The translations under genes were made by a program, and so were the position numbers. Shown here one piece after another: positions 36,657-64,000 of a stretch of DNA of 64,000 bases (position 1 is its first letter; each line of letters opens with the position of its first letter). The DNA comes from Patescibacteria group bacterium (lineage in GTDB: Bacteria > Patescibacteriota > Patescibacteriia > UBA10025 > JAHIVO01). The stretch spans positions 422,611-486,610 of the forward strand of contig JBMOKY010000001.1 in assembly GCA_049325535.1 (NCBI GenBank), read 5' to 3'. Under the pieces are notes generated by a model. That model did no database searches. It was not told the DNA's origin and saw only the letters and a program-made list of their open reading frames with translations.

Positions 36657-36674
36657 CGATTAATAAAATAAACT

Positions 36675-41220: not shown

Positions 41221-41225
41221 TACCA

Positions 41226-43732: not shown

Positions 43733-43770
43733 TCTTTTTAGTATCATTGAGCTTGGAGTAAGCGAAGGTC

Positions 43771-47778: not shown

Positions 47779-47782
47779 GACG

Positions 47783-48859
47783 TTAGCGTTCCTGATGCCA
47801 CCGCTCGATAGCTTCAACAATGAGTCGAGCGGCATTCCCAGAGCCATACAGAGCACCATGATTTTTAGGTGTCGGTGGGTGGGCGATTAAGCTCGCTATC
47901 CGATCGGCATCCGCTGCGGCAAGCGTATTCCATCCAGCCTGAAGCGTCTCGACCCACTCTGTTTCAGTGCGCAGGGTGATGCAGGGTACTTTAAAAAAGT
48001 ACGCTTCTTTTTGCATGCCACCGGAATCAGTCAGAATGAGCTGGGCGTTTTTTTCTAAAATGAGCATTTCATGATAGGGCACCGGGTCAACAATTAGAAT
48101 TTTACTTCCGGTTATAGTATCCTGGAAATGTTCCTCGGTAATTACTTTTCTGGTTCGCGGGTGCAGCGGTAGAAGAATGGGCTGTGTTGAACGTGATAAT
48201 CCCAATAAAATGTTTTTTAGGTTTTTTGGCTGGTCAGTATTTTCGGCACGATGGATGGTGGCGAGACTATAGGAATGCGGCTCGATCCTGAATTTACTCA
48301 GCACGTCCGTATCGTTCGGCGCCGTAGCAAGATATTTGATCAAAGCGTCGATCATTAGGTCACCGACGATCGTTATGCCGGTTTTAATATTTTCATTGGC
48401 GAGCCATGCAGCTGACTGGCGTGAAGAGCAGAGAAGTATGTCGGCGAGGTGGTCAGTGACTATACGGTTGATTTCCTCGGGCATCGATTTATTGAAGCTG
48501 CGCATGCCAGCCTCTACGTGGGCGACGGGAATATGCAGTTTTGCTGCGGCCAGCGCTCCAGCCAGGGTTGAGTTTGTATCTCCAAATACTATGACCACGT
48601 CAGGTTTAATCTGCATGAGTAACCCCTCAATTTCAGAAAGCATCCGGCCTGTCTGTATGCCATGGGAATTTGAACGGATATCGAGATTATAGTCCGGTTC
48701 GGGGATATGCAGCGCATCAAAAAAAACATCCGACATGTTTCGATCATAATGCTGGCCCGTGTGGATGATGATTTCCTGGTGTGCTTTCCTCAGCTCGCTT
48801 GACAGGGGTGCGAGTTTGATGAATTGTGGTCGTGCGCCGACGATGGAAACGATGGTCAT
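47783..48859 (-). CDS. UDP-N-acetylglucosamine 2-epimerase (WecB/WbpI/NeuC family)
   Basis: MTIVSIVGARPQFIKLAPL N-terminus, conserved HVEAGMRS and DSGGMQKEA motifs; 358 aa. Confidence 0.85.
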   Translation of the reverse strand: MTIVSIVGARPQFIKLAPLSSELRKAHQEIIIHTGQHYDRNMSDVFFDALHIPEPDYNLDIRSNSHGIQTGRMLSEIEGLLMQIKPDVVIVFGDTNSTLAGALAAAKLHIPVAHVEAGMRSFNKSMPEEINRIVTDHLADILLCSSRQSAAWLANENIKTGITIVGDLMIDALIKYLATAPNDTDVLSKFRIEPHSYSLATIHRAENTDQPKNLKNILLGLSRSTQPILLPLHPRTRKVITEEHFQDTITGSKILIVDPVPYHEMLILEKNAQLILTDSGGMQKEAYFFKVPCITLRTETEWVETLQAGWNTLAAADADRIASLIAHPPTPKNHGALYGSGNAARLIVEAIERWHQER

Positions 48860-50364
48860 TTGATCTGATTTTTCAGTATTTGTGTTAGTAGTTGAGCTAC
48901 GTTACCCGGTTGGTTCGTTGATACGAATTGTCGTTCCTTGTTTTCCCTTCGCGATTGGGTGAATATAAGGGCGGCCTCTCTGAAACTTTTTGCATCCGTA
49001 GCGAGTGCTGCCCGTGATTCTGTTATGTATCCTGGGTATTTCTTCGCGCCATTATGATCTATAAGAATCGTATTGATGTTAAATTGATGGGCTTCAATAA
49101 TAACCGAAGATGTTTGAGTAACATGCAAACTCATGTACGGCAGGAGAAGGTAAAGGGGGAGGGTCGTTGCTTCAGGAATAGTTATGCGTTCATGAATATC
49201 TCTTTGTGCAATTTGTTTCTGGATAGATGTGAGCAGATATTTATGTCCTGGGTGTAGTCGAAGCCACCAGTGCCACGATTGGTCAGATCCCATTATAGAG
49301 TCAAATAGCCAGTCTGGCAATGGAATATTTTGGGCGGTAATGAGTATATTGATTATTGCTTTTTTACTTCTAATTATTGATTCAATAGTACTCGCGTCTT
49401 TTTGTAGCTCACTAAATTCTCTATGCTTGAATTTATTTAAAAGTAAATTTCCGATAGTTATTATTTTATGAGGTGTTTTCCTCTTATGTATCCAGGAATA
49501 TGTTTTTTGTTCGCTTCCGTCGCCCCACAGTAGGAAATAGTCGGGAAGAAGTTCATATCCTTCTGGAGGGATGGTATCCCAGTGTGCGTAGGCAGGATGC
49601 ATCTCATCCTGGGTGCCGTGCTGGATGTCCGCTGTCGGTATAAGCAGCTCACGACATGCCAGTATAAGAGCGAATCTATTTGGTGAATAATAATTAGTCA
49701 TCATTACTAGTTTGGGTTTTATTCGTCTGAGGATTGCTAAGAATATTTTTTTGTACGTCAATATGAGGGATGTCAGCTTTAAAATTGATTTAATTTCCAA
49801 AAAAGAAGCGTCATTCAAATCGTTTTTAACGATAGTCAGCATCCGCTCATATTCAGGCAAATAGTAAGTGAGTCTTGACCTTCGGTATGTTATGAAATTA
49901 TATAATGAGCCAAAACTCAGAAGCGGTTGAATGAGAAATGACTTATTATTTCTCGGGTATAAGTATTCTCTGTAATTACTTTCCTCGATGCTAAAAGAAG
50001 TGAAGTTATTATTTGATAATTCCTCGATTATGGGATCGAAAAACCGTTCATAATAATGATTACCAATTTTGATGCGGTTTACAGTTGAGGAATAGAAAAG
50101 TATGTCAGCTTGATGAGGTCTGTAAGAATTATGTTCCCGATCATTAATGATCGCGTCAATAACGCGTAATAAATCTTTGATTATTTTTTTTGTGTGTGAT
50201 AGATATGATTTTTTTAGTGTTGACATTGCATTCTCCCTTTCGGCAGCCCCAAATATGAGCACACGAACAATAGGCCAAATACGCATGTCATCAACAACCC
50301 AGGAATTTACCGGGCACTCTTTTTCAATTTTTCGTATTAAATCAAAAGTTTTATTTTGGTTCAT
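48856..50364 (-). CDS. hypothetical GT-B-like protein; candidate capsule-synthesis (KpsS-like) nonulosonic-acid transferase
   Basis: 502 aa, AT-rich, no TM; sits between wzx and the pse genes; family assignment is inference only. Confidence 0.3.
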   Translation of the reverse strand: MNQNKTFDLIRKIEKECPVNSWVVDDMRIWPIVRVLIFGAAERENAMSTLKKSYLSHTKKIIKDLLRVIDAIINDREHNSYRPHQADILFYSSTVNRIKIGNHYYERFFDPIIEELSNNNFTSFSIEESNYREYLYPRNNKSFLIQPLLSFGSLYNFITYRRSRLTYYLPEYERMLTIVKNDLNDASFLEIKSILKLTSLILTYKKIFLAILRRIKPKLVMMTNYYSPNRFALILACRELLIPTADIQHGTQDEMHPAYAHWDTIPPEGYELLPDYFLLWGDGSEQKTYSWIHKRKTPHKIITIGNLLLNKFKHREFSELQKDASTIESIIRSKKAIINILITAQNIPLPDWLFDSIMGSDQSWHWWLRLHPGHKYLLTSIQKQIAQRDIHERITIPEATTLPLYLLLPYMSLHVTQTSSVIIEAHQFNINTILIDHNGAKKYPGYITESRAALATDAKSFREAALIFTQSRRENKERQFVSTNQPGNVAQLLTQILKNQIK

Positions 50365-51640
50365 GTGAAAATTTTAATGCCCTGAGCCACGGCATTTTAT
50401 AGATTCGATTGCTCAATATCCAGATAGCGAAAAATACTATAAAATAACTTATTGTTGTCGATTGCGCTGCTCCAATTGCTCCCCGGGCGCTTACGAACCA
50501 ATAAGTGAGTCCAATATTTAACAGGGCATTCGTAAATGTTAATATCGCAAGAATTCGTGTTTTTTTCATATAGAAAATGTAATTCGCCACCATAAAGTAC
50601 ATACCTTGAGCGGCATAAGCAAGCGCGATCCATATTACATATTCGGCAGAGGATTGGAATTCGTGTCCGACAAAAATTTTGAGAAGTGGGGGAGCGGCAA
50701 AACCAAGTAGCAAAGCAAGGAGAACGATAACAACGAAGTACAAATACGTGAATTGGACAATGTGGATTTTTGAACTATGTTTATTTTCTTTAAGTGTTTG
50801 GTATAGGTAGGGAACCCAAGCAGTATTGAATGATGTTGCCAATAAACTGATAACGGTTCCCACCTGAAATCCTACAGTATATAAACCGGTGGCCGCGATA
50901 CCAATCATTGCGGTAAGCATAATGCGATCGATAGTAGTGTTTATTAACCCACTCAGTGAGTGAGGAATAAGCGGTATGCCAAATTTCAAAGCATCGCGGA
51001 AATACTGAGGATTCCATGTAAATGAAATATACCCCCTCTTCAGCATTATATAAAAATTGATAGTTCCAAACAATATTGTTGAGATAATAATGCCATATAG
51101 CCTGCCTTCCCATTGCATCTGCATAAACATTATGAAAATCAGTGACAAGGCAAGATTGAGTATCGTATAGGCGATAGTAGTCAGCCCATATGGAATCGGG
51201 CGCTGTTCTGCTTGCCATAGAACGAGATTGAGTGATGTCAAAAATTGAAAGAAAGCGCTCAGTGTAATTATTGGCAGCCAAGTGGCCGGGAAGCCGAGTA
51301 GCTCAGTTAGTGCGTTGCTTAAGATCAGGGAAATCAGGAGGACAATGGCAAAACTGATACACAGTATGTAAATAATGTTACCGACATAAATACGCAGCTG
51401 ATCTTTTGAAAGTTTAAAGTATGAAACACTTACTGCCCCATGAGTGTTTATCCCGATGAGTACGATCAACACCGATATTATTACTTGGTAAATTGAAATA
51501 ATGCCGTAGTCTTCGGGTGACAAAAATCTGGTAAGAACAGGTAAAATGAGAAAGGGAATGCCGGCTTTAATAGTATTGCTCAGGATAAACAACGCTGAAT
51601 TTCTCGCCAATTTACTTTTTAGTAACGATATGAAATGCAT
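50351..51640 (-). CDS. wzx: Wzx-type polysaccharide flippase (MOP superfamily)
   Basis: 429 aa, 12 TM, N-terminus typical of polysaccharide biosynthesis protein family (LILPVLTRFLSPEDYG). Confidence 0.75.
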   Translation of the reverse strand: MHFISLLKSKLARNSALFILSNTIKAGIPFLILPVLTRFLSPEDYGIISIYQVIISVLIVLIGINTHGAVSVSYFKLSKDQLRIYVGNIIYILCISFAIVLLISLILSNALTELLGFPATWLPIITLSAFFQFLTSLNLVLWQAEQRPIPYGLTTIAYTILNLALSLIFIMFMQMQWEGRLYGIIISTILFGTINFYIMLKRGYISFTWNPQYFRDALKFGIPLIPHSLSGLINTTIDRIMLTAMIGIAATGLYTVGFQVGTVISLLATSFNTAWVPYLYQTLKENKHSSKIHIVQFTYLYFVVIVLLALLLGFAAPPLLKIFVGHEFQSSAEYVIWIALAYAAQGMYFMVANYIFYMKKTRILAILTFTNALLNIGLTYWFVSARGAIGAAQSTTISYFIVFFAIWILSNRIYKMPWLRALKFSHEPK

Positions 51641-51696
51641 AATTGATTCCCGAAACGGCGCTGGTTATTATAATCAAGCAGCGCTCCTTATCAAAA

Positions 51697-52428
51697 TTAA
51701 GGTTTTTTTTGCTGGACGTGAGTATTTATTGAGGAAATTTCAGGGTTTGCCGTGAGCCACCGTATCACTTGCGGCGTATCAATAAGTTTCCCTGGATGGT
51801 ACCATTGGTTGAAAATTATTTTCATGAGTTCGTAATCATCCACGGTATCCAGTGTTAGTCTCAATTCAGGATGGGCATATGACTGTGGCATAACGACGTT
51901 GTGGATGGTAAATAATTTGGACGGATTTTCCCGCATTATTAATGTGACGTGCTCACGCAAACGTTCGGTATGTGCATTCTCGTCAGCTTTCTTTAGTGCC
52001 CCTTCAGTGAAAGCTTCAACATCAAGTCCGTGTGGAATAATTCTTGATAAAACATTACTGGCATAGTCATACCCTGGCAGCTCATGGATGACCATCTCGA
52101 TAATAGTAGGGTCAATGAGTGGGCAATCTGCGGTGATGCGAACCAGTATAGGCGCCGGGTAGTGATTAGCTGCTAATCGATACCGAGACAGGACGTCAGA
52201 TAAATCACCGCGCACACAGAAAGTCCCCATTTCCTGACAGTAGCGTTCAATCGCGTCGTCGGTTTTGTCAGTTGAAGTTGCGACAACAACGTGTGCTTGA
52301 GGTACGTGTTTGCAACGGTCAACAATATGCCCAAGCACGGGTTTATCCGCAAGTGGTAATAAAACTTTACCCGGTAAACGGGTAGAGCTCATGCGTGCTT
52401 GAATGAGGATGGTGATTCTAGATGCCAT
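51697..52428 (-). CDS. pseF: CMP-pseudaminic acid synthetase-type cytidylyltransferase
   Basis: ILIQARMSSTRLPGKVLLPL N-terminal motif of the CTP_transf_3/NeuA/SpsF family; 243 aa. Confidence 0.75.
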   Translation of the reverse strand: MASRITILIQARMSSTRLPGKVLLPLADKPVLGHIVDRCKHVPQAHVVVATSTDKTDDAIERYCQEMGTFCVRGDLSDVLSRYRLAANHYPAPILVRITADCPLIDPTIIEMVIHELPGYDYASNVLSRIIPHGLDVEAFTEGALKKADENAHTERLREHVTLIMRENPSKLFTIHNVVMPQSYAHPELRLTLDTVDDYELMKIIFNQWYHPGKLIDTPQVIRWLTANPEISSINTHVQQKKP

Positions 52429-52438
52429 AGTATTATTT

Positions 52439-53488
52439 TTATCGTGAAATATCCGTCCGACGCAGAGGGGTGCCTGCTTTCAAACTTCGTCGAGCTTTTT
52501 TCCGCAATATCGTGGGTAGTAAGATGGGAGGGAGTCCAGCATTCGGTCTGATGGAGCGGACATTTTCATACGTGAATCGATCTCCAGCTCTGATGTCTTT
52601 TACGGCAAAGAGTGATCGGCTGAATAGGCGGCTTTTTTTTGTTTTTTCCGAAAGAGTGTAGCGTATTTTTCCGATTGCTTGCTCCGCATCGCGGACCGAG
52701 CGTACCATGTTCCGGAATTCATCTGGTTCTAGGGAAAAAGAAGCGTCAGGCCCGCCGAGGGAGCGTTTCAAGATCAGGTGTTTTTCTATGATTTTTGCGC
52801 CAAGACTCACTGCCGCGATTGGCGCGACGATACCGGTTGTATGGTCTGACAAGCCGGTAATGACGCGGAAGCGTTTTTTCATATCCGGCATAGTTGCTAG
52901 ATTTGCTTCGGCTAATGGAGCCGGATAGGCTGAGGTGCATTGGAGCAAGGCAATAGCATAATTACCTTTTCGTCGACATGCCCGGACCGCTGCCGTAATA
53001 TCAGCTACTGTAGCAATGCCAGTTGAAATGATCATCGGTTTTCCTTGAGCGGCCGTGTATTCTATGAGTGGTATGTCCGTAATTTCAAATGAAGCAATTT
53101 TATAGGCCGGAACGTTCATTTTTTTTAAAAAGTCCACAGCCGTTATGTCAAATGGGGATGAGAAGCATTCCATGCCTAATTGGTTTGCTAATTTTTTTAG
53201 TTTTGGCTGCCATTGCCATGGCGTATGTGCTTCCTGGTACAGGTCGTAGAGTGTCCGGCCATCCCAAATTGTGTCGCTATTGATGCGGAAGTATTTTGTG
53301 TCACTTTTCATCGTGATAGTATCGGCAGTATATGTTTGTAATTTAACTGCGTCAGCGCCAGCCTTTTTTGCAGCACGTATTGTCCGTACCGCAATATCAA
53401 ACCGCTGGTTATGGTTAGCTGATAATTCTGCAATGATAAATGCCGGTGAATGATCACTAATTTCTTTTTTTCCGATTCGAATTTTCAT
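52439..53488 (-). CDS. pseI: pseudaminic acid synthase (NeuB family)
   Basis: FIIAELSANHNQRFDIAVRTIRAAKKAGADAVKLQTY NeuB TIM-barrel signature plus C-terminal SAF domain; 349 aa. Confidence 0.85.
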   Translation of the reverse strand: MKIRIGKKEISDHSPAFIIAELSANHNQRFDIAVRTIRAAKKAGADAVKLQTYTADTITMKSDTKYFRINSDTIWDGRTLYDLYQEAHTPWQWQPKLKKLANQLGMECFSSPFDITAVDFLKKMNVPAYKIASFEITDIPLIEYTAAQGKPMIISTGIATVADITAAVRACRRKGNYAIALLQCTSAYPAPLAEANLATMPDMKKRFRVITGLSDHTTGIVAPIAAVSLGAKIIEKHLILKRSLGGPDASFSLEPDEFRNMVRSVRDAEQAIGKIRYTLSEKTKKSRLFSRSLFAVKDIRAGDRFTYENVRSIRPNAGLPPILLPTILRKKARRSLKAGTPLRRTDISR

Positions 53489-53491
53489 AAA

Positions 53492-53977
53492 TTAAACGGA
53501 AAAAATATATTTTTTTGCTTGTTGTTCTCGCACCACTACCGTAGCCTCAAACTGGAAGCCGGCCTTTTCAAAAAGCTTGATGGATGGAGTATTATCAGGC
53601 TTGATGAATGCCTCTATGCGCATAATTTCGGGATGAAGCGACAGGTAATGTTTAATTGCCAACTGAAGTAATGGTAGGGCAAGCTTTCTGCCACGAAATT
53701 GTGCGGTAACACTAATACCGATTATGGCCACGCCATCGGCGCAGTCAAAACGTACTTGACCCGCAAATCGCCCCTCATACTCAGCGATTAAAAATGTACC
53801 GGATGGATCATGCAGCTTACGATTGAACCATGTAATATGTTGGGGTAGGGAAATGGCCGATGAGCTAAAGGAGTTCTTTCGCACAACCGGATCCATCGCA
53901 AGGTCATATACAGTCCGGGTGTCAGCGCGTGTCACTTTTCTGATAAGTATTTTTTCCGGCTGTATACTATTGGTCAT
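53492..53977 (-). CDS. pseH: GNAT N-acetyltransferase, PseH-like
   Basis: 161 aa GNAT embedded between pseG and pseI. Confidence 0.6.
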   Translation of the reverse strand: MTNSIQPEKILIRKVTRADTRTVYDLAMDPVVRKNSFSSSAISLPQHITWFNRKLHDPSGTFLIAEYEGRFAGQVRFDCADGVAIIGISVTAQFRGRKLALPLLQLAIKHYLSLHPEIMRIEAFIKPDNTPSIKLFEKAGFQFEATVVVREQQAKKYIFSV

Positions 53978-55001
53978 AAGGAGAGCGTATAGTATGTTTT
54001 ATTTCTCGGGCAATCCGGCGCGAACCGTATCCATCGATCAGTCGGCGTCCCGCCCTACTCATTTCTTTTCTTCTTGAAACATTATCTAAAGTGCGGCATG
54101 CATGTATTAGCTGAGATGCGAAGTTCGCGGATGGACCGGTACGCGCGTCAATCGGGTGTATTGCGTTTTTGCGGTGCCAGGCACGCGCATTCAGTATCTG
54201 ATTTTCGGCTACGATGACGCCGATCGAAGGTAATCCGACACAGGCTAATTCATTGAGCGTTTGGCCCGCTCCTGATATAGCAATATCCGCAGTATACATC
54301 AGTCTGATGAGGGCAGCCGCGGAAAGATTGTGATACAATTTTATTGTTTTATCTTTTTTTTGTAAGGATATGAGCTGTTGCCTATTCTGTTTCCGAAATC
54401 CAGCGCCAACGACAACGTGCTTCTTCCACCGGGGATAGTTTGTTGAGAGCGCCCACAAAACATGCGGCGTCAGTGAACGCACGTCTGTTGCGCCAATGGT
54501 AATGAGCACATCGGTCATTTTTTTGCGTATGTGCCGTCGTGCTCGATGTGCAAATTCCTTTCTCAACAATAATTCATACCAATAGGTGGGTTCATGCGGA
54601 CGTCGTATCATATAAAAAGGACGGTACCCGCTCTTGGCATGCCACCCAACCTTCAGGACGACTGAGCTGGCGGGGTATGTAATACGATCGTAGTCGTCTA
54701 TACATACTATAAGTGGCACCTGCTTCGCGATTTCATTGTATACAGCACGTGATGCATGATATGAGTCAATGATAACGCAGTCTGCACCGGTGAGAGCTGT
54801 ACGGCGGAGACGCGCACGCGTAATCCAGTCTCCCCGACGCGCGAAGTGTTTGGGAACAACGGTATGAATACTCGACGGGCCATCAACATACATCGTACAT
54901 ACCATATTCTCATCTTGACACGCTTCGGCTAATGCGTGGCAGCGGGTCAGATGACCAAATCCTTTTTCGGGACTCCCTTCAGTTAATATAGTCACCATCA
55001 T
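53967..55001 (-). CDS. pseG: UDP-2,4-diacetamido-2,4,6-trideoxy-beta-L-altropyranose hydrolase, PseG-like
   Basis: N-terminal GFGHLTRCHALA motif and GT28-like GT-B fold without donor-binding features; 344 aa. Confidence 0.65.
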   Translation of the reverse strand: MMVTILTEGSPEKGFGHLTRCHALAEACQDENMVCTMYVDGPSSIHTVVPKHFARRGDWITRARLRRTALTGADCVIIDSYHASRAVYNEIAKQVPLIVCIDDYDRITYPASSVVLKVGWHAKSGYRPFYMIRRPHEPTYWYELLLRKEFAHRARRHIRKKMTDVLITIGATDVRSLTPHVLWALSTNYPRWKKHVVVGAGFRKQNRQQLISLQKKDKTIKLYHNLSAAALIRLMYTADIAISGAGQTLNELACVGLPSIGVIVAENQILNARAWHRKNAIHPIDARTGPSANFASQLIHACRTLDNVSRRKEMSRAGRRLIDGYGSRRIAREIKHTIRSPYDQ

Positions 55002-55780
55002 GTCGGTCCAACCTCCTGGATAAATCGTTTACGCGTAGGAACACCCTTTTTACTCAAATATTCTTTCGCTTCCAAGGGAGTTTGTTCGGTGAAATGGAAA
55101 ATACTTGCCGCAGCAACCGCGGATGCGCCACCAGTGGTTATGGCTTGGTACATATCTTCATAATTCCCTGCACCACCTGAAGCGATGACCGGAATACTCA
55201 CTGCCGCACTTACCCGCTTAATCAGCTCTAGGTCGTATCCTTTCATTTCTCCGTCGTGATTGATAGAAGTTAGGAGAATTTCTCCTGCTCCACGCCGCTC
55301 TGCTTCTTGCGCCCATACAATAACTTCTTTTCCGGTATCTACTGTACCGGCATGGCTAAAGCAATGGTAGATGCCATTGATCGGACGGGCGTCAATACTC
55401 ACTACGATACATTGCGCGCCAAATTGCTTTGCCCCTTTGTTAATTAGATCAGGAGCAATAAATGCGCCTGTGTTTATAGACACCTTATCAGCTCCGCAGC
55501 GTAGTAGTTGTTTGATATGCTCGATATCCGTAATGCCACCTCCAACCGTAAAAGGAAAAAAACATTCACTGGATATTTCACGGATGGCATCAAAATCAGG
55601 TATCCTTTTTTCTTTCGACGCCATGATATCTACGAGTATCAACTCATCGACTTGTCGCGTATTATAGACACGTACAGCGGGAATAACACTGCCAACACGA
55701 CGCCAGCTATCAAATTGCTTGCCTTTGACGAGGCCAACATCCTTCCAGAGGAGCGTCGGAATAATACGAATTTTAAGCAT
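54998..55780 (-). CDS. HisF-like cyclase subunit of a glycan amidotransferase (WbuZ-like)
   Basis: Clear HisF (beta/alpha)8 signature [19 protein letters not shown]; located in glycan cluster, not a his operon. Confidence 0.8.
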
Positions 55781-56394
55781 TAGAGTGAGAGAAAATTTTT
55801 CAAAATACTGAAACCAGCATTTTGGCTTTTTTCGGGGTGGAATTGTGTGCCGTAGACGTTTTTATTTTTGATCACCGAAGCAAAGGACCCACAGTAGGGT
55901 GTGGTTGCAATCACGGAACTTTGTGCGGCGGGGGAGAAGAAGTAACTGTGAACGAAGTAGAAATCGGTGTGGTCGGGAATGCCAGAAACAATATCATCAG
56001 GCTGCACAATAGTCACTTCATTCCAGCCAATATGAGGTATTCGCTCTTTTTTTTCTGTTGGTTGGAATTTTTTAATGGTGCCAGGTACCAGACCTAGTCC
56101 TTTGGTTGCGCCACCCTCATCTCCTTTGTCAGCAAGTAATTGCTGACCCAAGCAGATACCAAGGAACGGCACGCCATCCTCAAGCGCTGCCTTTCTAATT
56201 GATTCAACCCAGCCACGTTCACGCAAGTTTTTCATGCCATCAAAAAACGCACCCACTCCTGGCAAAATAATATGGGTGGCATCACACAAAGAATAGGGGT
56301 CATCACTTATATGTACAATACCACCACATTCAATAATTGCTTGACGAATCGAGCTGAGATTGCTCATTCCATAATCAATTATGGTGACATTCAT
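55780..56394 (-). CDS. HisH-like glutamine amidotransferase subunit (WbuY-like)
   Basis: MNVTIIDYGMSNLSSI N-terminus and class-I GATase Cys-His-Glu triad context; 204 aa. Confidence 0.8.
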   Translation of the reverse strand: MNVTIIDYGMSNLSSIRQAIIECGGIVHISDDPYSLCDATHIILPGVGAFFDGMKNLRERGWVESIRKAALEDGVPFLGICLGQQLLADKGDEGGATKGLGLVPGTIKKFQPTEKKERIPHIGWNEVTIVQPDDIVSGIPDHTDFYFVHSYFFSPAAQSSVIATTPYCGSFASVIKNKNVYGTQFHPEKSQNAGFSILKNFLSL

Positions 56395-56409
56395 AGAGTA
56401 GAGAACAAC

Positions 56410-57558
56410 CTATAATTCTGGATGGAAGAGTTTGATGAGGTTACCGTGTCGGTCTTTGACTAGGTTGCCACGCGAATCGGTTTTGAATATTTTTTTATTC
56501 GTATATCGATCACAGACGCGATGGAATTCTTCGAGAGACATGTCAATTTTTTCTAGAATAGCTTCGATTGATTTGCCTAGGTATGACCAGGGGAATTTAC
56601 CATCATGTCGCTGAACTAGTGCAATGCCATCCTGGCGGGTGATACGCCCACGGCGGATGTGTAGTGAGGCAATATCAGTCGCACGACCGAAACCAAACTT
56701 GAGGTATTTAAAATAATCATGGATACCAGTTTGGTAATTATCTAAGTTTTCGTAATTGACGATGGAACCCTCAATCGTTCTTGGGTAGGTTGTTAACCCA
56801 AATCCCTGCGAAATAAGGGCGTTTGAATACCCATCCCAGGGTAAGTAGTAACCGAGGAATATGCCGGTTACCCCGACCTCTTGGAGTTCTTCATTGGAAG
56901 GATAGCGATAAGGAATTAATTGTTTTTCATTAACACCTTCTAGCCCAATGATATCGCTAAATCGTAATCCAAGAAGGCCGCCAAATTCTTCGAGCCATCG
57001 GCGTGTTAATACATTATTTTTACTGTCAGCAGCTGGACCGCCATACTCATTTTGGGAGTTTTCTCCCCAGATAATCATCGGTATTTTATATTGTACCGCA
57101 ACTCTGACTGGAATTGTGAAAATGCCGATATGCTCCGGCCACGAAATATCACCAACCTGCGTCAAACCTATTTTATTGAGTTTTGCGCGGACGACTGGAT
57201 TGGGAGAGAATTCAATCATGTCAACACCTAGACTTTTTAGATTGTTGATATTTTTTCTTCCGATATCGGTTAGGTCGCAGGTGGTGGCTACCACGCACAG
57301 TGGATTTAGTCCAAGCTGAAGCATGCGAACCGTCTGGTACGTACTGTCCTTACCGCCACTAACCGGAACTATACAATCCCAATGTGATCCATTCTTAGAT
57401 TTATATTTTTCTAAAATAACGTTGAGCTCTTTACGGCGAGTTTGCCAGTCGACTTGCTTTCGATGCTCGAAACTTCGGCAAGCATTGCAGATTCCTTCCT
57501 CGTCAATGAGAAGATCGGGCTTTGTATCGGGCAGGAGACAACGTGAGCAATAAATCAT
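56410..57558 (-). CDS. N-acetyl sugar amidotransferase (WbuX/PseA family, PP-loop ATPase)
   Basis: N-terminal CxxC..CxxC zinc ribbon and PP-loop SGGKDS; 382 aa. Confidence 0.8.
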   Translation of the reverse strand: MIYCSRCLLPDTKPDLLIDEEGICNACRSFEHRKQVDWQTRRKELNVILEKYKSKNGSHWDCIVPVSGGKDSTYQTVRMLQLGLNPLCVVATTCDLTDIGRKNINNLKSLGVDMIEFSPNPVVRAKLNKIGLTQVGDISWPEHIGIFTIPVRVAVQYKIPMIIWGENSQNEYGGPAADSKNNVLTRRWLEEFGGLLGLRFSDIIGLEGVNEKQLIPYRYPSNEELQEVGVTGIFLGYYLPWDGYSNALISQGFGLTTYPRTIEGSIVNYENLDNYQTGIHDYFKYLKFGFGRATDIASLHIRRGRITRQDGIALVQRHDGKFPWSYLGKSIEAILEKIDMSLEEFHRVCDRYTNKKIFKTDSRGNLVKDRHGNLIKLFHPEL

Positions 57559-57578
57559 AAACTTTTGTAATCGGGTAA

Positions 57579-58211
57579 TTATTTTTTTAGAAGAAACCAG
57601 GTAATGTCATCCTGTGGATAGTGGGGATCGCGGTGATAATTAAATCCATATGCAACAAGTTTCAACCGTGGATAGCGGTCCATTATTTCACCGCAGAAAT
57701 CACGCTTAAATAAACGGTTTTTGTACCCACGATAGGGGATCATGACAGGGCTGGGATTATAGTACTCACCAACGCAAATATATTGTGCGCTCGATTCATA
57801 TAGTTTTTTGTACACTATTGGCAACTTTTTTGGATTAACATGGATCAAAACACCTTTGATAAAAACTAAGTCCCAGCGCCGATGCGGCCGGAAATCTAAT
57901 ATTGACTGGTTGAAAACCTCGATCGATCCGCCACTCCATTCGCGCATCGCCTGTGCAGCAGTTGCATTGATCTCGATGGCAGTTAATGCTGCCCGCGGTC
58001 GGAGGGCATGGATAGCTCGTAAGTTCATGCCTATGTTTGCGCCGAACTCCAATACTGAGTTGATGTGGTTCTTATTTGGTATATGCTTAAAAATGCGTTT
58101 GAAATAATGTTTTTGGTTCTCCAAAAACCTTTTTCCGGTATTCCGTTGGATATAGTCGTCTCCAAATTTCGTTGCCCAAAATTTTTCTTGTGCGGTGGCG
58201 TATTGTTTCAT
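57579..58211 (-). CDS. SAM-dependent methyltransferase, pseudaminic-acid-biosynthesis-associated type
   Basis: 210 aa; motif I-like LEFGANIGMNLRAI; position inside the pse operon. Confidence 0.5.
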   Translation of the reverse strand: MKQYATAQEKFWATKFGDDYIQRNTGKRFLENQKHYFKRIFKHIPNKNHINSVLEFGANIGMNLRAIHALRPRAALTAIEINATAAQAMREWSGGSIEVFNQSILDFRPHRRWDLVFIKGVLIHVNPKKLPIVYKKLYESSAQYICVGEYYNPSPVMIPYRGYKNRLFKRDFCGEIMDRYPRLKLVAYGFNYHRDPHYPQDDITWFLLKK

Positions 58212-58217
58212 GGCAGT

Positions 58218-59375
58218 TTAGTTAGCGGATAATGATTTAATAGCAGTGATGACGCGCGTCACGTCTGTATTAGTCAAATCAGGATAAAGCGGCAGACTCA
58301 ACTCTTGTTCATAAAAATCCTCCGCAATGGGGAAATCGCCCAAATGATAGCCAAAGTTTTTTTGATAATATGGTTGCATATGAACCGGAATATAATGCAC
58401 TTGTGTGCCTATCCCTTGATCTGCAAGTCGCCGCATCACGATAGCTCGAGTTGTTTTTAGTACCTGAAAATCAATACGCAATGTGTACAGATGGAAAGCG
58501 GAGATTATCCCTTTGCGTTCCACCGGAATCGAGACATATGATAGTTCAGCGAATGCTTTATTATATTCGGTCACAATGTCCCGACGTCGCCTGATAAAAT
58601 TAGGTAATTTTTTCATTTGGCTTATTCCGAGCGCGGCATGCAGGTCAGATAATCGGTAGTTAAATCCGAGTGTTTGCATTTCGTAGTACCATGGACCAGG
58701 ATTTTGAGACAGATACTCGGGGCTTTTTGTAATCCCGTGTGTACGTAATAGTAATAGACGTTGGTATAATACATCATCATTGGTTGTGATGGCGCCACCT
58801 TCAGCCGTTGTGATTGTTTTTACCGGGTGGAAGGAAAAAGTGGTGAGGTCAGCATAGCGGCCCGACCCTACCGGAGTACCATCAGCGTAATATGAGCCGA
58901 TTGCATGAGCGGCGTCTTCAATAATTTTTAAATTGTGTTGATCCGCGATAGTTTTAATTGATTCCATGTCAGCGGGCTGGCCGGCATAATGGACAGGAAT
59001 CACCATCTTGGTTCGAGGGGTAATAGCTTTTTTAATTGCCGCAGGGTCGATGCAACCTGTCATGAGATCGATATCGGCAAACCGGGGGAGTAAATTGTTG
59101 TACACTAGTGCATTTGCTGATGCGACAAAAGTCATTGGCGTGGTAATACCTTCACTGCCAGCAGGTAGTTCAAGCGCAGCCACCGCCAAATGAAGGGCAG
59201 CAGTGCCATTTGCGACAGCAACACAATAACGAGCTCCGGTCAGTTGCCGTATCGATTCCTCGAACTCCGTGACACGCGGACCCTGGGTAAGATAATCACT
59301 TCGGAGAGTATTGATGACTGCGGCAACATCATCATCATCAATATGTTGCTTTCCATAAGACAGAGTATTGGACAT
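58218..59375 (-). CDS. pseC: UDP-4-amino-4,6-dideoxy-N-acetyl-beta-L-altrosamine transaminase (DegT/DnrJ/EryC1 family)
   Basis: PLP-dependent aminotransferase fold with conserved Lys region; N-terminus YGKQHIDDDDVAAVINTLRSDYLTQG typical of PseC; 385 aa. Confidence 0.8.
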   Translation of the reverse strand: MSNTLSYGKQHIDDDDVAAVINTLRSDYLTQGPRVTEFEESIRQLTGARYCVAVANGTAALHLAVAALELPAGSEGITTPMTFVASANALVYNNLLPRFADIDLMTGCIDPAAIKKAITPRTKMVIPVHYAGQPADMESIKTIADQHNLKIIEDAAHAIGSYYADGTPVGSGRYADLTTFSFHPVKTITTAEGGAITTNDDVLYQRLLLLRTHGITKSPEYLSQNPGPWYYEMQTLGFNYRLSDLHAALGISQMKKLPNFIRRRRDIVTEYNKAFAELSYVSIPVERKGIISAFHLYTLRIDFQVLKTTRAIVMRRLADQGIGTQVHYIPVHMQPYYQKNFGYHLGDFPIAEDFYEQELSLPLYPDLTNTDVTRVITAIKSLSAN

Positions 59376-59383
59376 GTGACGTG

Positions 59384-60382
59384 CTAGTAAATTATGTCAA
59401 TTTTACTCAGATATTTTCTGATTTGCAATTCAGTAAGCCATTGAGCATTGGTGTCGGATGAATAGCGGAAATTATGAGCTACTCGTTTTCCTCCTTTTTT
59501 AAAATGTTTGCTCAGCACCCACCAATCAAAGTCCGGATAGATAATGTAATGATCCTTATAGTCGTATGTGGTTCGCGAATCTTCGACAGTAATCATTACT
59601 TCGTGGAGTTTTTCACCTTCTCGAATGCCGACTTCTTTAAGTTTAACATGGGGTAACATAGCTTTCGCAATGTCTACAATATTTGTCGAAGGAATTTTAG
59701 AGACGTATATTTCCCCCCCTTTTGACTCACGAATTGCCCGAAAAACTAGATCGACGCCCTGATCGAGGGTGATCCAGAAGCGAGTCATACGCATGTCAGT
59801 AATCGGCAGCTCCTTTGCACCCTGGTCAATCAGTGTTTTAAAAAAAGGCACGACTGACCCGCGACTGCCCACGACGTTTCCGTATCGAACTACACTGAAG
59901 GCAGTATCCTTCCCGCCTACATATGCGTTTGCCGCTACGAATAATTTATCGGAAACAAGCTTTGTGGCGCCGTACAGATTGACGGGATTTACAGCTTTAT
60001 CAGTTGAGAGTGCCACAATTTTTTTTACGCCGCGGTCAATTGATGCGTTAATGACATTTTGTGCACCAAAAATGTTTGTTTTGATCGCTTCCATGGGGTT
60101 ATATTCCGCGGCGGGGACATGTTTGAGAGCCGCCGCATGGATTACGATATCTATACCCTCCAGTGCGCGTTTTAACCGGTCGGCATCGCGTACATCTCCT
60201 ATGAAATACCGTATATGGCTATCATATTTTGCATACTGGCGCCTCATGAGATACTGTTTATACTCGTCTCGGGAATAAATTATCACACGCCTAGGTTTAT
60301 ATTCTGCAAAAATTCGTTCAGTGAATTTTTTGCCGAATGATCCCGTGCCGCCGGTTATGAGAATAGATTTTCCATTAAGCAT
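59384..60382 (-). CDS. pseB: UDP-N-acetylglucosamine 4,6-dehydratase (inverting)
   Basis: KSILITGGTGSFGKKF Rossmann motif and PseB/FlaA1-like SDR with YxxxK; 332 aa. Confidence 0.85.
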   Translation of the reverse strand: MLNGKSILITGGTGSFGKKFTERIFAEYKPRRVIIYSRDEYKQYLMRRQYAKYDSHIRYFIGDVRDADRLKRALEGIDIVIHAAALKHVPAAEYNPMEAIKTNIFGAQNVINASIDRGVKKIVALSTDKAVNPVNLYGATKLVSDKLFVAANAYVGGKDTAFSVVRYGNVVGSRGSVVPFFKTLIDQGAKELPITDMRMTRFWITLDQGVDLVFRAIRESKGGEIYVSKIPSTNIVDIAKAMLPHVKLKEVGIREGEKLHEVMITVEDSRTTYDYKDHYIIYPDFDWWVLSKHFKKGGKRVAHNFRYSSDTNAQWLTELQIRKYLSKIDIIY

Positions 60383-61481
60383 ATGGTAAACAATCCCTTG
60401 ATAATAATGTATTGATAATGTTTGTCTGTGTAGTATCTTTTAATTCTGGGAATATGGGCAAAGATAATACTTGGGATGAGGCTTGCATTGAATGAGGAAA
60501 GTCTTCTTTCTTATATCCCAGGTCGGCGTAAGCTTTTTGCACGTGCAGCGGTTCCGGATAGTATACCATAGTTGGGATGCCGATTTTTTGTAGCACCGGT
60601 CGAAGGGAATCCCTTTTCTTCACCTTGATTGTATATTGATGGTACACATGACTTGCACCCGGTGCAATTGAAGGGGTGGTTATTTTAGAATCAACGAGTA
60701 ATTCATCGTAGCGAGCTGCTAATCGCTGTCTTTTGGCATTCCAATCATCTAAGTATGGCAGTTTCGCGAGCAGGATTGCCGCCTGCATGGTATCCAGTCG
60801 TGAGCTCGCTCCGACGAAATCGGTGTAGTATTTTTTTGGTTGACCGTGAATCCTCCATTGGCGAAGGTATTCTGCTATTTTTTTATCGCTGGTCACCACC
60901 ATCCCACCGTCCCCATAGGCACCGAGATTTTTGGTCGGAAAAAAAGAAAAGCAGCCCGTGGTACCAAACGATCCGACTTTTTTACCATTATATTCCGCAC
61001 CGATTGCCTGAGCGCAATCTTCGATGACATATAGTTTATGCTTTTGTGCTATGGCCATAATTGCGTCCATCTCAGCAGCCTGCCCGTAGAGATGAACCGG
61101 AATGATTGCCTTGGTTTTTTTTGTGATGGCAGCTTCGAGAAGTTTTGGGTCGACATTAAATGTTTTTGGATTGATATCCACAAAAACAATTTTTCCTCCG
61201 GCTATCGCGACTGCCTCAGCCGTAGCGATATAGGTAAACGTCGGAACTATGACCTCGTCTCCAGGGGTGATGCCCAGCGCGATCAGAGATGCAGTGAGTG
61301 CGTCGCTTCCTGAATTTAGACCAACGGCGTATGGCACACCTACGTACTCGGCAATTTTTTGTTCCAGTTCAGCCACCTCGTCACCCATAATGAATGACGA
61401 GTTTTGAATCACTCGGTTGATAGCCGCGTCAACTTCTTTTTTTATTGACTGATATTGAGCTTCGAGGTCAAGGAACTTCAT
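60375..61481 (-). CDS. DegT/DnrJ/EryC1 family sugar aminotransferase (WbpE/ArnB-like)
   Basis: PLP-dependent fold; 368 aa; clustered with WbpB- and WbpD-like genes. Confidence 0.75.
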   Translation of the reverse strand: MKFLDLEAQYQSIKKEVDAAINRVIQNSSFIMGDEVAELEQKIAEYVGVPYAVGLNSGSDALTASLIALGITPGDEVIVPTFTYIATAEAVAIAGGKIVFVDINPKTFNVDPKLLEAAITKKTKAIIPVHLYGQAAEMDAIMAIAQKHKLYVIEDCAQAIGAEYNGKKVGSFGTTGCFSFFPTKNLGAYGDGGMVVTSDKKIAEYLRQWRIHGQPKKYYTDFVGASSRLDTMQAAILLAKLPYLDDWNAKRQRLAARYDELLVDSKITTPSIAPGASHVYHQYTIKVKKRDSLRPVLQKIGIPTMVYYPEPLHVQKAYADLGYKKEDFPHSMQASSQVLSLPIFPELKDTTQTNIINTLLSRDCLPYA

Positions 61482-62059
61482 GTGACTTGAGATATCGAAT
61501 TATTTTTTTCTATATACTGTTGATTACAAACACTGCAGCGAGCTGTATTACCATCAAATTCAAGCCGAGTAGCGTGATCGGAGACCCACCCGTGGTGACG
61601 CGCAGGATTACCGTACCATAGTGCAAAATCAGGTACATCCTTCGTCACTACTGACCCCGCGCCGATAAATGCGTATTTCCCGATAGTAATACCACAGACG
61701 ATAGTGACATTGGCGCCAATCGTAGCGCCTCTTCGAATCACAGTTTTTTTGTAGTTACCATGTTTTGGGAATTCCGCCCGTGGATTCCAGTCATTCGTAA
61801 ACACCATTGACGGCCCGCAGAAAACGTAGTCGTCAATGACAACTTTATCATACACCGAAACGTTATTCTGTATCTTTGCATTGTTACCGATTACTGCCTG
61901 CCCACCCACATACACATTCTGTCCTAGGGAGCAGTTTTGTCCGATCTGGGCTCCTGACATGACATGTGAAAAATGCCAGATTTTGGTGCCCGCCCCGATG
62001 ATCGCTCCGTCATCGATGATAGCCGTGGGATCGGCAAAATATCCTTCGTTTTCTCTCAT
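61478..62059 (-). CDS. left-handed beta-helix (hexapeptide) sugar N-acetyltransferase, WbpD-like
   Basis: Repeated [LIV]GxxxxI hexapeptides (IIGAGTKIWHFSHVMSGAQIGQNCSLGQNVYVG); 193 aa. Confidence 0.75.
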   Translation of the reverse strand: MRENEGYFADPTAIIDDGAIIGAGTKIWHFSHVMSGAQIGQNCSLGQNVYVGGQAVIGNNAKIQNNVSVYDKVVIDDYVFCGPSMVFTNDWNPRAEFPKHGNYKKTVIRRGATIGANVTIVCGITIGKYAFIGAGSVVTKDVPDFALWYGNPARHHGWVSDHATRLEFDGNTARCSVCNQQYIEKNNSISQVT

Positions 62060-62083
62060 AAATAGGCCCTACAATTAAAAACA

Positions 62084-62125
62084 GGGTTGGTGATATTATA
62101 CCAATCCTGTTTGAGTGTCGCAAGG
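62084..62125 (-). terminator. intra-operon hairpin with U-tract on the minus strand (possible partial terminator/attenuator)
   Basis: 12-bp stem AACAGGAUUGGU/ACCAACCCUGUU (one G-U) followed by UUUUUAAUUG on the minus strand, between the wbpB-like and wbpD-like genes. Confidence 0.35.
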
Positions 62126-62137
62126 TCTCAGCTGGCT

Positions 62138-63082
62138 TTATTTTACGTGAGCCAGTGCCTGAGGGTGGGTATGTTCATTAGGCGGCTGCAGTGTGGCGTG
62201 GCGGATGGCATGGACGATATCGATTGAGGGGCGAGCGTCCTCCGTGCCAAATCCACCTCCATTCAAAATGTCCTGATATACCAGCGTATGGAGGTCGGTA
62301 AATCCATCGGAAAATTCTATCTCGTCACCATCGAGCGTCATGGAACGGAAGGTTTTTTTATCTCCTGCAGCTGCAGGCAGATCATCACTATCGACGGACA
62401 GATACCATTGCACGTCGGCATGTTTCAGCTCCAGGTAGCCACTTACTCGGCGGTCATCTTTGAGGTATATGACATTTTTTGACGCGGGCCCGAAAAGCCA
62501 CATGAGCAAATCGAAGAAATGGATTCCAATATTGGTCGCTAGACCGCCTGATTTGTCGAGCACACCTTTCCACGATGACAGGTACCATGATCCGCGGGAG
62601 GTGATATAGGTGAGGGAAATATGATGTCGTTTGTCAGAACGTTCGCCGAGTTTCTTTTTCAGTTCGATCAGTTTCGGATGCAGCCTGAGCTGCAACACGG
62701 TGAATATTTTTTTTCCGTATTCGCGCTCTAGTTCCTGCAGCGCGTCGATGTTCCACGGGTTCAGTACCAGCGGCTTCTCGCAAATGGCATTAGCACCGAC
62801 CCGGAGGGCAAATCTAATATGTGCGTCATGTAAATAATTTGGAGAACAGATGCTGACGTAGTGCACTTCCGTGCCTTTGTCATCCCGGCGCAGTTTATCG
62901 ACGTGCCGATCGAAACGCTCGAATTCGGTAAAGAACCGAGCGTGGGGGAAGTAGCTATCCATGATGCCGACGGAGTCGTGTGGATCGAGTGCTGCCACCA
63001 CCGTGTTTCCAGTTTCCTTGATAGCTTTGAGATGGCGCGGTGCGATATACCCGGCAACCCCAGTAATAGCAAAATTGCTCAT
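62138..63082 (-). CDS. Gfo/Idh/MocA family oxidoreductase, WbpB-like UDP-GlcNAcA 3-dehydrogenase
   Basis: N-terminal Rossmann ITGVAGYIAPRHL and EKP motif; 314 aa. Confidence 0.75.
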   Translation of the reverse strand: MSNFAITGVAGYIAPRHLKAIKETGNTVVAALDPHDSVGIMDSYFPHARFFTEFERFDRHVDKLRRDDKGTEVHYVSICSPNYLHDAHIRFALRVGANAICEKPLVLNPWNIDALQELEREYGKKIFTVLQLRLHPKLIELKKKLGERSDKRHHISLTYITSRGSWYLSSWKGVLDKSGGLATNIGIHFFDLLMWLFGPASKNVIYLKDDRRVSGYLELKHADVQWYLSVDSDDLPAAAGDKKTFRSMTLDGDEIEFSDGFTDLHTLVYQDILNGGGFGTEDARPSIDIVHAIRHATLQPPNEHTHPQALAHVK

Positions 63083-63474
63083 ATTGTTTTGTTCTGATGT
63101 TTACTAGTAAAAAGATATATCATCAGGCTGATAGCGCAGATGATGAGAATTATCAAACTGATTGTGAGTAGGGAAAAGGGCAGACCAAAACGATTCAGTG
63201 CGTAGGTGAGGGTCGGTACAGAAATTATGGACAGTATCACGCTGAAGATCACTCGCTGAAATGTCCATGTCTTTTCACGTGGCCAGATCGCCAGGGAAAT
63301 GCAAAAACCCGGCAGCCAGAGAGCGACGACTAAACCAACGGCCATGCGTATCACATCCAGGATTTGCATACGTATGAAAAATACTAAAAAGTGACCAATA
63401 TTGCCGAGATGTAAGCACATGGTAGCAAAATCTAGCCACTTTGAAAAGGGAGGGTATGATGGTATAATAAGCAC
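63079..63474 (-). CDS. small membrane protein (start uncertain), first gene of the minus-strand glycan operon
   Basis: 3 TM helices; 4-nt overlap with the wbpB-like start. Confidence 0.3.
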   Translation of the reverse strand: MLIIPSYPPFSKWLDFATMCLHLGNIGHFLVFFIRMQILDVIRMAVGLVVALWLPGFCISLAIWPREKTWTFQRVIFSVILSIISVPTLTYALNRFGLPFSLLTISLIILIICAISLMIYLFTSKHQNKTI

Positions 63475-63480
63475 CGTATT

Positions 63481-64000
63481 ATGCGCATCATTACCCGATT
63501 ACGACTGCCCACCACCCCAATAGTATTAGCTGTGTTGCTCGCATTTTTTTTCTGTGTCTACGGCAGTTATTATCAGGGGATTTCTGTTTTTACTTCGCCG
63601 GATGAGACGGCAAATTATTTTTTTGCCACTCAGTTTGCCGATTCCGGCTCTTTGGCTGTTGCCGATGATATCAATGCTGATTCGAATGGTATCGTCCACC
63701 CGCGCAGCGTCAAACTCAACGCGCACGGTGAGATGGTTCCCGGCAGTTTTGTCGGTATGCCCCTCTACTACGGCATCATCGCAACGGCGGTTGGCGATTG
63801 GAGTATACGGTGGCTGACCCCACTGGCGGCCGTACTGGGGGCGCTGGCTTTTTATTTTATCGTTAGGAGAATATTTGGTAAGCTGACGGCTGTTGTTTCT
63901 ATCGCATGTCTGCTCATTCTTCCACCATATTGGTATTATGCCAGCCGCGGCATGTTTCATAATGTGCTTTTTATATCTCTGATACTTATTTGCGTTTCAT
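63481..64000 (+). CDS. GT-C fold (ArnT/PMT-like, GT39/GT83-type) membrane glycosyltransferase, 3' end beyond window
   Basis: Manual translation MRIITRLRLPTTPIVLAVLLAFFFCVYGSYYQGISVFTSPDETANYFFATQFADSGSLAV... shows TM1 followed by a first-loop DE motif; frame is open to the window edge and absent from the ORF track. Confidence 0.45.
   Translation, partial: MRIITRLRLPTTPIVLAVLLAFFFCVYGSYYQGISVFTSPDETANYFFATQFADSGSLAVADDINADSNGIVHPRSVKLNAHGEMVPGSFVGMPLYYGIIATAVGDWSIRWLTPLAAVLGALAFYFIVRRIFGKLTAVVSIACLLILPPYWYYASRGMFHNVLFISLILICVS

Follow-up and report, generated by a model that had tools for sequence, protein, structure and literature searches.

Which sugars are made by an operon in which genes for pseudaminic acid (Pse) are interleaved with an amidotransferase, and which of those sugars would receive the amidine? 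The question is raised by a stretch of 64,000 nucleotides, here called the window, from a metagenome-assembled genome (MAG) of about 1.15 Mb belonging to the Patescibacteria, or Candidate Phyla Radiation (CPR). The first-pass annotation of this DNA had placed ten tightly packed minus-strand open reading frames (ORFs) at 51697-60382, and an ORF check confirmed both their coordinates and their packing, with gaps or overlaps between genes of at most 20 bp. These ORFs fill only the middle part of an operon of 17 genes (46546-63082, minus strand; Table 1). Three genes resembling wbpB, wbpD and wbpE lie upstream of pseB and overlap it by 8 bp, and a further four lie downstream of the cytidylyltransferase gene, encoding a Wzx flippase, a 502-residue protein (U502), an epimerase and a GT4 glycosyltransferase. 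The coordinates of the earlier operon picture thus hold, but the WbpB-, WbpD-, WbpE- and WbpI-like genes of the same operon had been overlooked. We drew the operon limits from gene spacing alone, because promoter and terminator scans of 46000-64000 returned counts not above those of shuffled sequence (47 versus 40.3±6.0 and 18 versus 17.7±4.1, respectively). Judging from its genes, we consider it likely that the operon directs the synthesis of two rare acidic amino sugars and encodes some of the machinery for their export, with the Pse probably in an acetamidino form.

The pseudaminic acid pathway

Profile hits were judged by the curated bit-score cut-offs of NCBIfam, with Pfam and sequence searches of the Protein Data Bank (PDB) alongside. 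All six pse genes had been reported in the first-pass annotation. PseB, PseC and PseI do pass their cut-offs, whereas the PseG and PseH candidates score below theirs and the cytidylyltransferase is not orthologous to PseF. The PseG and PseH assignments combine weak similarity with conserved position. The match to the PseG model covers positions 1-278 of 280, starting from residue 1 of the 344-residue ORF, and the place of this gene is kept in related loci, as is that of the GNAT acetyltransferase gene between pseG and pseI. The NCBI annotation of the 53967-55001 gene is a 214-residue 'glycosyltransferase'; the longer, 344-residue start is more likely to be correct, because the PseG model aligns from residue 1.

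The cytidylyltransferase scores 13.6 bits against the PseF model TIGR03584 (cut-off 205.7), which places it outside the PseF family. Among solved structures it is closest to PDB 6oew (131.5 bits), an uncharacterised 'cytidylyltransferase'; the window protein has a generic NCBI name, and many pse clusters contain homologues of it. SpsF-type cytidylyltransferases have been proposed to activate nonulosonic acids, or to replace NeuA/PseF, elsewhere (PMC7439481, PMC7371886, PMC13317340). We provisionally regard the window enzyme as SpsF-like, and presume from its family and context that it is a functional analogue of PseF from another CTP_transf_3 clade. If the cytidylyltransferase, the PseG-like protein and the GNAT protein could not stand in for PseF, PseG and PseH, either steps of the pathway would be missing or its end product would be another nonulosonic acid. 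All three lie below the curated cut-offs, and the NCBI pipeline gives them generic names only. However, dozens of pse clusters from different phyla have these three gene types in matching positions, PseB, PseC and PseI are unambiguous, and we saw no alternative genes for the three steps in the operon, which makes this explanation very unlikely. A complete Pse pathway, though one without a pseF orthologue, is a reasonable inference from the gene set.

A legionaminic (Leg) or neuraminic (Neu) pathway was rejected. Placement of these enzymes with their legionaminic counterparts had been named in the first-pass annotation as the outcome that would speak against Pse; the LegB, LegC and NeuB models gave 79, 244 and 305 bits, all under their cut-offs of 475, 420 and 399.65, which favours Pse. 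By its profile scores the pathway is pseudaminic, not legionaminic.

The amidotransferase trio and its substrate

A trio of N-acetyl sugar amidotransferase (NASAT), HisH-like glutaminase and HisF-like barrel had been described in the first-pass annotation, and our searches bear this out: the NASAT and the HisH-like protein pass their cut-offs, and the barrel lies just below that of WbuZ. The barrel gene stands beside those of its two partners, an adjacency kept in 52 of 55 related loci. An SGGxDS PP-loop and a CxxC...[GN]xCxxC zinc motif define the NASAT family, for which ATP-dependent ligation of ammonia to an N-acetyl group has been inferred (PMC10607449). Both motifs can be read in the window protein, as C4xxC7...G22xC24xxC27 and S67GGKDS72, and it matches PDB 8wex with 159 bits. 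The HisH-like protein retains the Cys-His-Glu triad in its sequence, with Cys81 in GICLG and His186 and Glu188 in FHPE. Catalytically, the trio appears plausible.

The HisF-like protein also falls short of the HisF cyclase model TIGR00735 (271.5 bits, cut-off 294.55). In an alignment to HisF the catalytic Asp11 is replaced by Leu, and 68 of 70 HisF-like homologues from related loci likewise have Leu there; R5, E46, K99, E167 and D130, the last also a catalytic residue of HisF, are invariant among them. In imidazole-glycerol-phosphate synthase the ammonia tunnel is gated by R5, E46, K99 and E167, and the cyclase chemistry depends on Asp11. Because the cyclase aspartate is lost and the ammonia-gate residues are kept, we propose that the barrel would act as an ammonia-channel subunit and not as a cyclase. 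A role for the HisH and HisF proteins in histidine biosynthesis was rejected, given the loss of Asp11, the missed HisF cut-off and the embedding of the gene in the cluster. NCBI gives the window HisF-like protein a histidine-biosynthesis label, which is likely to be a mis-annotation. In Campylobacter jejuni, Cj1314c and Cj1315c, the hisF and hisH paralogues beside pseA, have been read as evidence of intact histidine biosynthesis (PMC12102941).

Which sugar does the trio act on? In Pseudomonas aeruginosa O5, ManNAc3NAmA owes its 3-acetamidino group to WbpG, and the reported substrate of WbuX in Escherichia coli O145 is L-FucNAc (PMC10607449), so the neighbourhood alone cannot fix the amidation target. 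In a scan limited to one genome per species, NASATs 65-78% identical to that of the window turned up at 80 loci, from Patescibacteria, Saccharibacteria, Berkelbacteria, Proteobacteria, Cyanobacteria, Planctomycetes, Verrucomicrobia, Spirochaetes and archaea. The ORFs of these loci were annotated by BLASTP against the window proteins, and counts were taken over the 55 loci flanked on each side by 3 kb or more. PseB, PseC or PseI is present in 49 of the 55, HisH in 53, HisF in 52 and the methylase (at least 45% identity) in 30, whereas any WbpB-, WbpD- or WbpE-like gene is present in only 4. The exact order pseB-pseC-methyltransferase-NASAT-hisH-hisF-pseG-pseH-pseI also occurs in a saccharibacterial locus (L006) and in one from the Burkholderiaceae (L054). 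The closest relative, from another Patescibacteria MAG (L002), has the same order minus the methylase, with a NASAT 78% and a PseB 83% identical to those of the window. The window NASAT thus falls in a subfamily that is highly conserved and associated with pse genes. NASATs from legionaminic clusters are only about 30% identical to it; they include that of a Rhizobium plasmid, where it is encoded along with legB, legC, neuC, neuB, wbuZ and hisH, and the Legionella protein of structure 8WEX (159 bits). The NASATs in the plasmid collection are all distant (below 37% identity, used as out-groups), and no wbp-linked example was found among them. These comparisons suggest that NASAT subfamilies track sugar type. 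Since its close homologues travel with pse genes, we think it quite likely that the substrate of the window NASAT is a sugar of the Pse pathway.

The operon also encodes what appears to be a second sugar pathway. The best match of the WbpI-like epimerase is a Thermus 2-epimerase (8sxv), and E. coli WecB reaches only 130.7 bits. Outside the operon lies a candidate UDP-N-acetylhexosamine 6-dehydrogenase gene, whose product would feed the Wbp branch; at equivalog level this protein most resembles UDP-ManNAc and UDP-GlcNAc dehydrogenases, none of whose cut-offs it reaches. With this candidate, the WbpB, WbpD, WbpE and WbpI homologues predict UDP-2,3-diacetamido-2,3-dideoxy-mannuronic acid (UDP-ManNAc3NAcA) as a second rare sugar, so that the organism could make it as well as Pse.

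It is possible that the trio amidates the 3-N-acetyl group of UDP-ManNAc3NAcA, as WbpG does, and that Pse stays as Pse5Ac7Ac. The WbpB-, WbpD-, WbpE- and WbpI-like proteins (359, 232, 355 and 370 bits) share the operon with the trio, the dehydrogenase candidate is nearby, WbpG is a precedent (PMC10607449), and a Sphingomonas cluster couples WbuX/HisF2/HisH with WbpB/E/D-type genes (PMC11340318). Yet among close NASAT homologues Wbp-like genes are rare and pse genes nearly constant, and in the window the trio is placed between pseC and the methyltransferase gene on one side and pseG on the other, away from the wbp genes. In the closest CPR relative the trio is inside a pse cluster, and no wbp gene was detected there, which is weak evidence as that contig is only 9.8 kb long. 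We regard the uronic acid as an unlikely target. Several points nevertheless weigh against our preference for Pse. All of the WbpB/E/D/I branch is encoded in the operon, and in P. aeruginosa O5 the homologous WbpG system is documented to act on the product of that branch (PMC10607449); gene context is no proof of substrate, as WbuX of E. coli O145 with its action on L-FucNAc illustrates (PMC10607449). The PseG-like, PseH-like and WbuZ matches fall short of the curated cut-offs, the cytidylyltransferase lies outside the PseF family, and synteny was counted with plain BLAST identity thresholds and not with trees. The acetamidino-Pse proposed in the first-pass annotation remains the best prediction, on the pse context of the NASAT subfamily, but the target is not certain and the rival offered by the Wbp branch had been overlooked.

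From the gene content, family membership, motifs and cross-phylum synteny observed here we infer the following chemistry, including the amidated N-acetyl group, the methyl acceptor and the final glycoconjugate. The PseH-like GNAT would N-acetylate the Pse intermediate and the PseG-like hydrolase would remove UDP; condensation with phosphoenolpyruvate by PseI would give Pse5Ac7Ac, which the non-PseF cytidylyltransferase would activate to the CMP-sugar. HisH would hydrolyse glutamine and the HisF-like barrel would pass the ammonia on. The NASAT, with its zinc site and PP-loop, would use ATP to adenylate the N-acetyl carbonyl and exchange its O for NH, so that an acetamidino-Pse of type Pse5Ac7Am or Pse5Am7Ac would result. 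The S-adenosylmethionine (SAM)-dependent methyltransferase probably adds a methyl group. WbpB, WbpE and WbpD with the WbpI-like epimerase would make UDP-ManNAc3NAcA, and Wzx, the novel GT-B protein U502 and GT4 enzymes would assemble and flip the glycan.

Table 1. Positions in the window of the operon genes and of a candidate dehydrogenase gene outside it, with the matches on which each assignment is based
Feature	Position	Strand	Evidence
UDP-N-acetylhexosamine 6-dehydrogenase candidate (WbpA/WecC/TviB-like)	36675-37982	+	TIGR03026, 413 bits
GT4 glycosyltransferase, last operon gene	46546-47859	-	Glycos_transf_1 and Glyco_transf_4
WbpI-like UDP-2,3-diacetamido-2,3-dideoxy-glucuronic acid 2-epimerase	47783-48859	-	PDB 8sxv, 369.8 bits
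U502, 502-residue GT-B-fold protein, unnamed family	48856-50364	-	Predicted structure, pLDDT 90.7, pTM 0.91
Wzx-type flippase	50351-51640	-	PF01943, 97.7 bits; about 10 hydrophobic segments
CTP_transf_3 cytidylyltransferase, presumed CMP-Pse synthetase	51697-52428	-	PF02348, 103 bits
PseI, pseudaminic acid synthase	52439-53488	-	TIGR03586, 495 bits (cut-off 340.25, passes)
GNAT N-acetyltransferase in PseH position	53492-53977	-	TIGR03585, 36.9 bits (cut-off 93.1); Acetyltransf_3, 53.6 bits
PseG-like UDP-sugar hydrolase	53967-55001	-	TIGR03590, 118.6 bits (cut-off 153.55, below)
HisF/WbuZ-like barrel	54998-55780	-	WbuZ TIGR03572, 291.6 bits (cut-off 299.7, just below); AglZ/HisF2, 266 bits
HisH-like class I glutaminase subunit	55780-56394	-	TIGR01855, 217 bits (cut-off 105.4, passes)
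N-acetyl sugar amidotransferase (NASAT; WbuX/PseA/WbpG family)	56410-57558	-	TIGR03573, 351.2 bits (cut-off 203.2, passes)
SAM-dependent methyltransferase, 'Pse biosynthesis-associated methylase' family	57579-58211	-	TIGR03587, 253.9 bits (cut-off 112, passes)
PseC aminotransferase	58218-59375	-	TIGR03588, 491.7 bits (cut-off 423.5, passes)
PseB, inverting UDP-GlcNAc 4,6-dehydratase	59384-60382	-	TIGR03589, 539 bits (cut-off 407.75, passes)
WbpE-like 3-aminotransferase	60375-61481	-	PDB 3nyu (WbpE), 354.7 bits; PseC model, 259.7 bits (cut-off 423.5, below)
WbpD/WlbB-like 3-N-acetyltransferase	61478-62059	-	PDB 3mqg, 232 bits; Hexapep (hexapeptide repeat)
WbpB-like UDP-GlcNAcA 3-dehydrogenase, first operon gene	62138-63082	-	PDB 3oa2 (WbpB), 358.7 bits, E 2.8e-106; GFO_IDH_MocA domains

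The methyltransferase and the assembly of the glycan

The model that names the methylase, TIGR03587, is a 'hypothetical equivalog' model, and the family has 6841 homologues at E<=1e-10. Its predicted structure has a class I methyltransferase fold (predicted local distance difference test, pLDDT, 87.5). A PDB sequence search with the protein was uninformative (best E 0.0096), and a literature search on 'pseudaminic acid biosynthesis-associated methylase' found nothing. Among 29 methylase-anchored metagenome loci that extend 3 kb or more to either side, 26 have pse genes, 12 have a NASAT and 17 have none. As pse clusters carry the methylase with or without a NASAT, the methylase is, on this distribution, a putative Pse-linked decoration enzyme independent of the amidine.

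Could the enzyme instead N-methylate the acetamidino group, giving an N-methylacetimidoyl-Pse analogous to Leg5AmNMe7Ac, with methyltransferase and NASAT working as one unit? The methylase gene is directly upstream of the NASAT gene in the window and in 21 of the 55 NASAT-anchored loci, and PtmH of Campylobacter has been described as the N-methyltransferase for Leg5AmNMe7Ac (PMC13317340). The neighbours of the methylase model in a fold search include the N-methyltransferases NRMT1 and NodS, but they are generic class I enzymes at a template modelling (TM) score of about 0.6, and the match is not diagnostic. Moreover, the NASAT-free loci indicate that the family does not require an amidine, and argue against an obligatory PtmH-type N-methyl-acetimidoyl product. 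We consider an N-methylated amidine quite unlikely, and favour a methyl group added independently of amidation. The family occurs as often without an amidotransferase as with one, so the 'doubly modified' sugar of the first-pass annotation is possible.

The Wzx flippase that the first-pass annotation had listed after the pse genes is supported by its PF01943 match, and the 'non-GT4 transferase' next to it is U502, for which the predicted structure (predicted TM score, pTM, in Table 1) has a GT-B fold. U502 is a candidate transferase with no Pfam or NCBIfam match and no PDB sequence match (best E 0.28), and we found only 66 homologues among 5.8 billion proteins. Within the family Q248, H249, G250 and S419 are invariant and R369, H371, P372 and E424 nearly so, giving the conserved motifs QHG and R-x-H-P, and some homologues are fused to tetratricopeptide repeat (TPR) or methyltransferase domains (P0282, P0289, P0299). 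All three homologue contexts that we examined (L162, L163 and L164) are nonulosonic-acid clusters with CTP_transf_3, and NeuB is present in L162 and L163. In L162 and L164 the homologue lies just downstream of a Wzx 39-40% identical to that of the window, immediately so in L162. Where a NeuB homologue is present, it shares about 33% identity with PseI, and the three clusters appear to be of Leg or Neu type. Our best guess, taken from the modelled fold and these contexts, is that U502 belongs to a nonulosonate transferase family of variable donor specificity.

Assembly of the Wzx/Wzy type had also been proposed. Wzx is present, but family searches of the window proteins recognised no Wzy. The sole Wzy candidate, at 43771-45390 (plus strand), is a 539-residue protein without a family match; it combines about 12 hydrophobic segments with a soluble C-terminal part and may be either a polymerase resembling Wzy or a glycosyltransferase of the GT-C type. 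A priming polyprenyl-phosphate glycosylphosphotransferase (14170-15561; TIGR03025, 400 bits) lies 30 kb from the operon, and numerous GT4 and GT2 genes fill 15565-19565 and 33995-46586. Possible acceptors of the glycan are lipid-linked and wall polymers, S-layer proteins and pilins.

Genomic setting and comparison with known systems

Surface-glycan genes take up more than 35 kb of the 64-kb window. Besides the operon there are two further blocks on the plus strand, 14170-21944 and 33995-46586, which hold the priming phosphoglycosyltransferase and several GT4 and GT2 genes, as well as two short-chain dehydrogenase/reductase (SDR) epimerase/dehydratases, a 783-residue DUF4012 protein and an NTP_transf_5-like protein. 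The G+C content is 0.39-0.48 over the glycan region (42-64 kb) against about 0.50-0.55 in the first 40 kb, and the window NASAT is 72-79% identical to proteins from unrelated phyla. The drop in G+C and the NASAT identity suggest that the glycan region was acquired horizontally. A class A bacterial RNase P RNA (217 bits) was found at 13735-14132 (plus strand), partly overlapping the 3' end of the ORF at 12967-13896 (minus strand).

The operon starts at about 63082 and diverges from a PMT_2 (GT-C) gene, as seen on inspecting the DNA beyond the window. This gene encodes a 557-residue glycosyltransferase, runs on the plus strand from 63481 across the window end at 64000 to about 65154 (L001 7929-9602), and is followed by genes for S-adenosylhomocysteine hydrolase and then rmlABCD. 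At 63079-63474 (minus strand) gene callers missed a 131-residue ORF with four hydrophobic segments, which overlaps the start of the wbpB-like gene by 4 bp and matches DUF1616 weakly (26.3 bits against a cut-off of 31.6); it may be a small membrane protein heading the operon. The 56-bp gap between the cytidylyltransferase gene and wzx contains an 11-of-12 sigma-70-like match (51667-51694, minus strand), in a region where site counts are not above shuffled; by its sequence it may be an internal promoter. Two minus-strand ORFs were rejected as spurious, that at 63526-63960, which overlaps the PMT_2 gene, and that at 50790-51281, which overlaps a called gene.

Nonulosonic acids shape the recognition of bacterial surfaces by hosts, phages and partner cells, and CPR bacteria live attached to other microbes. 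To our knowledge, almost nothing is known of CPR surface chemistry, and our literature searches for Patescibacteria with pseudaminic and for CPR with nonulosonic found no substantive link; the former yielded one paper, in which each word appears once, and the latter nothing. The core gene set is a common cassette across many phyla, already captured by annotation models. What makes the locus of interest is the CPR host with its small genome, the joining of the operon to a Wbp-type branch, and the functionally uncharacterised methylase and U502. The locus is a concrete prediction of acetamidino-Pse and a diacetamido-uronic acid in a CPR bacterium, and highlights both the Pse-associated methylase family, with its roughly 6,800 members, and the rare U502 GT-B family. 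A bolder reading would be that U502 founds a CMP-nonulosonate transferase family paired with a dedicated Wzx, that the TIGR03587 methylase makes a methylated Pse tied to no enzyme so far, and that an ultra-small CPR bacterium is coated with an acetamidino, methylated Pse glycan. If true, the three together would be new; that all of them hold jointly we regard as doubtful.

How does the operon compare with systems already described? In C. jejuni pseH, hisF, hisH and pseA carry the consecutive tags Cj1313, Cj1314c, Cj1315c and Cj1316c (PMC12102941), and PseA is described as a CMP-Pse5Ac7Am acetamidino-synthase (PMC13317340). The window resembles this pseH-hisF-hisH-pseA-pseI arrangement (Cj1313-Cj1317, Pse5Ac7Am) in having a WbuX-family amidotransferase with HisH and HisF paralogues amid pse genes (PMC12102941, PMC13317340), and its predicted product is also an acetamidino-Pse, a likeness resting on gene types and neighbourhood. 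Unlike the C. jejuni flagellin system, the window has no flagellar or Maf genes and a single Wzx-containing operon, its cytidylyltransferase is not PseF, and it has an additional methylase and Wbp branch.

The B-band cluster of P. aeruginosa O5, which comprises WbpA/B/D/E/I and WbpG alongside hisH2 and hisF2, directs synthesis of ManNAc3NAmA and shares with the window the same type of trio and the WbpB, WbpD, WbpE and WbpI homologues, which match solved structures with 230-370 bits. In contrast to that cluster, the window trio is surrounded by pse genes, and it is pse genes, not wbp genes, that accompany its close homologues. The NASAT of Legionella pneumophila (8WEX) has the same fold family, PP-loop and zinc tetracysteine motif (PMC10607449); it is a distant relative, however (159 bits), with about 75 extra N-terminal residues, and PMC10607449 describes no partner subunits for it. 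The sps legionaminic pathway of Bacillus subtilis is similar in that a non-NeuA/PseF cytidylyltransferase (SpsF) and the PseG-like SpsG serve a nonulosonate route (PMC7439481), but that route gives Leg and has no amidation module. There is also the widespread cassette pseB-pseC-(cytidylyltransferase)-methyltransferase-NASAT-hisH-hisF-pseG/H-pseI, found in MAGs and isolates of many phyla, in which the gene order is the same or nearly so and the NASATs are 65-78% identical; to this cassette the window operon adds wbpBDE, the wbpI-like gene and U502.

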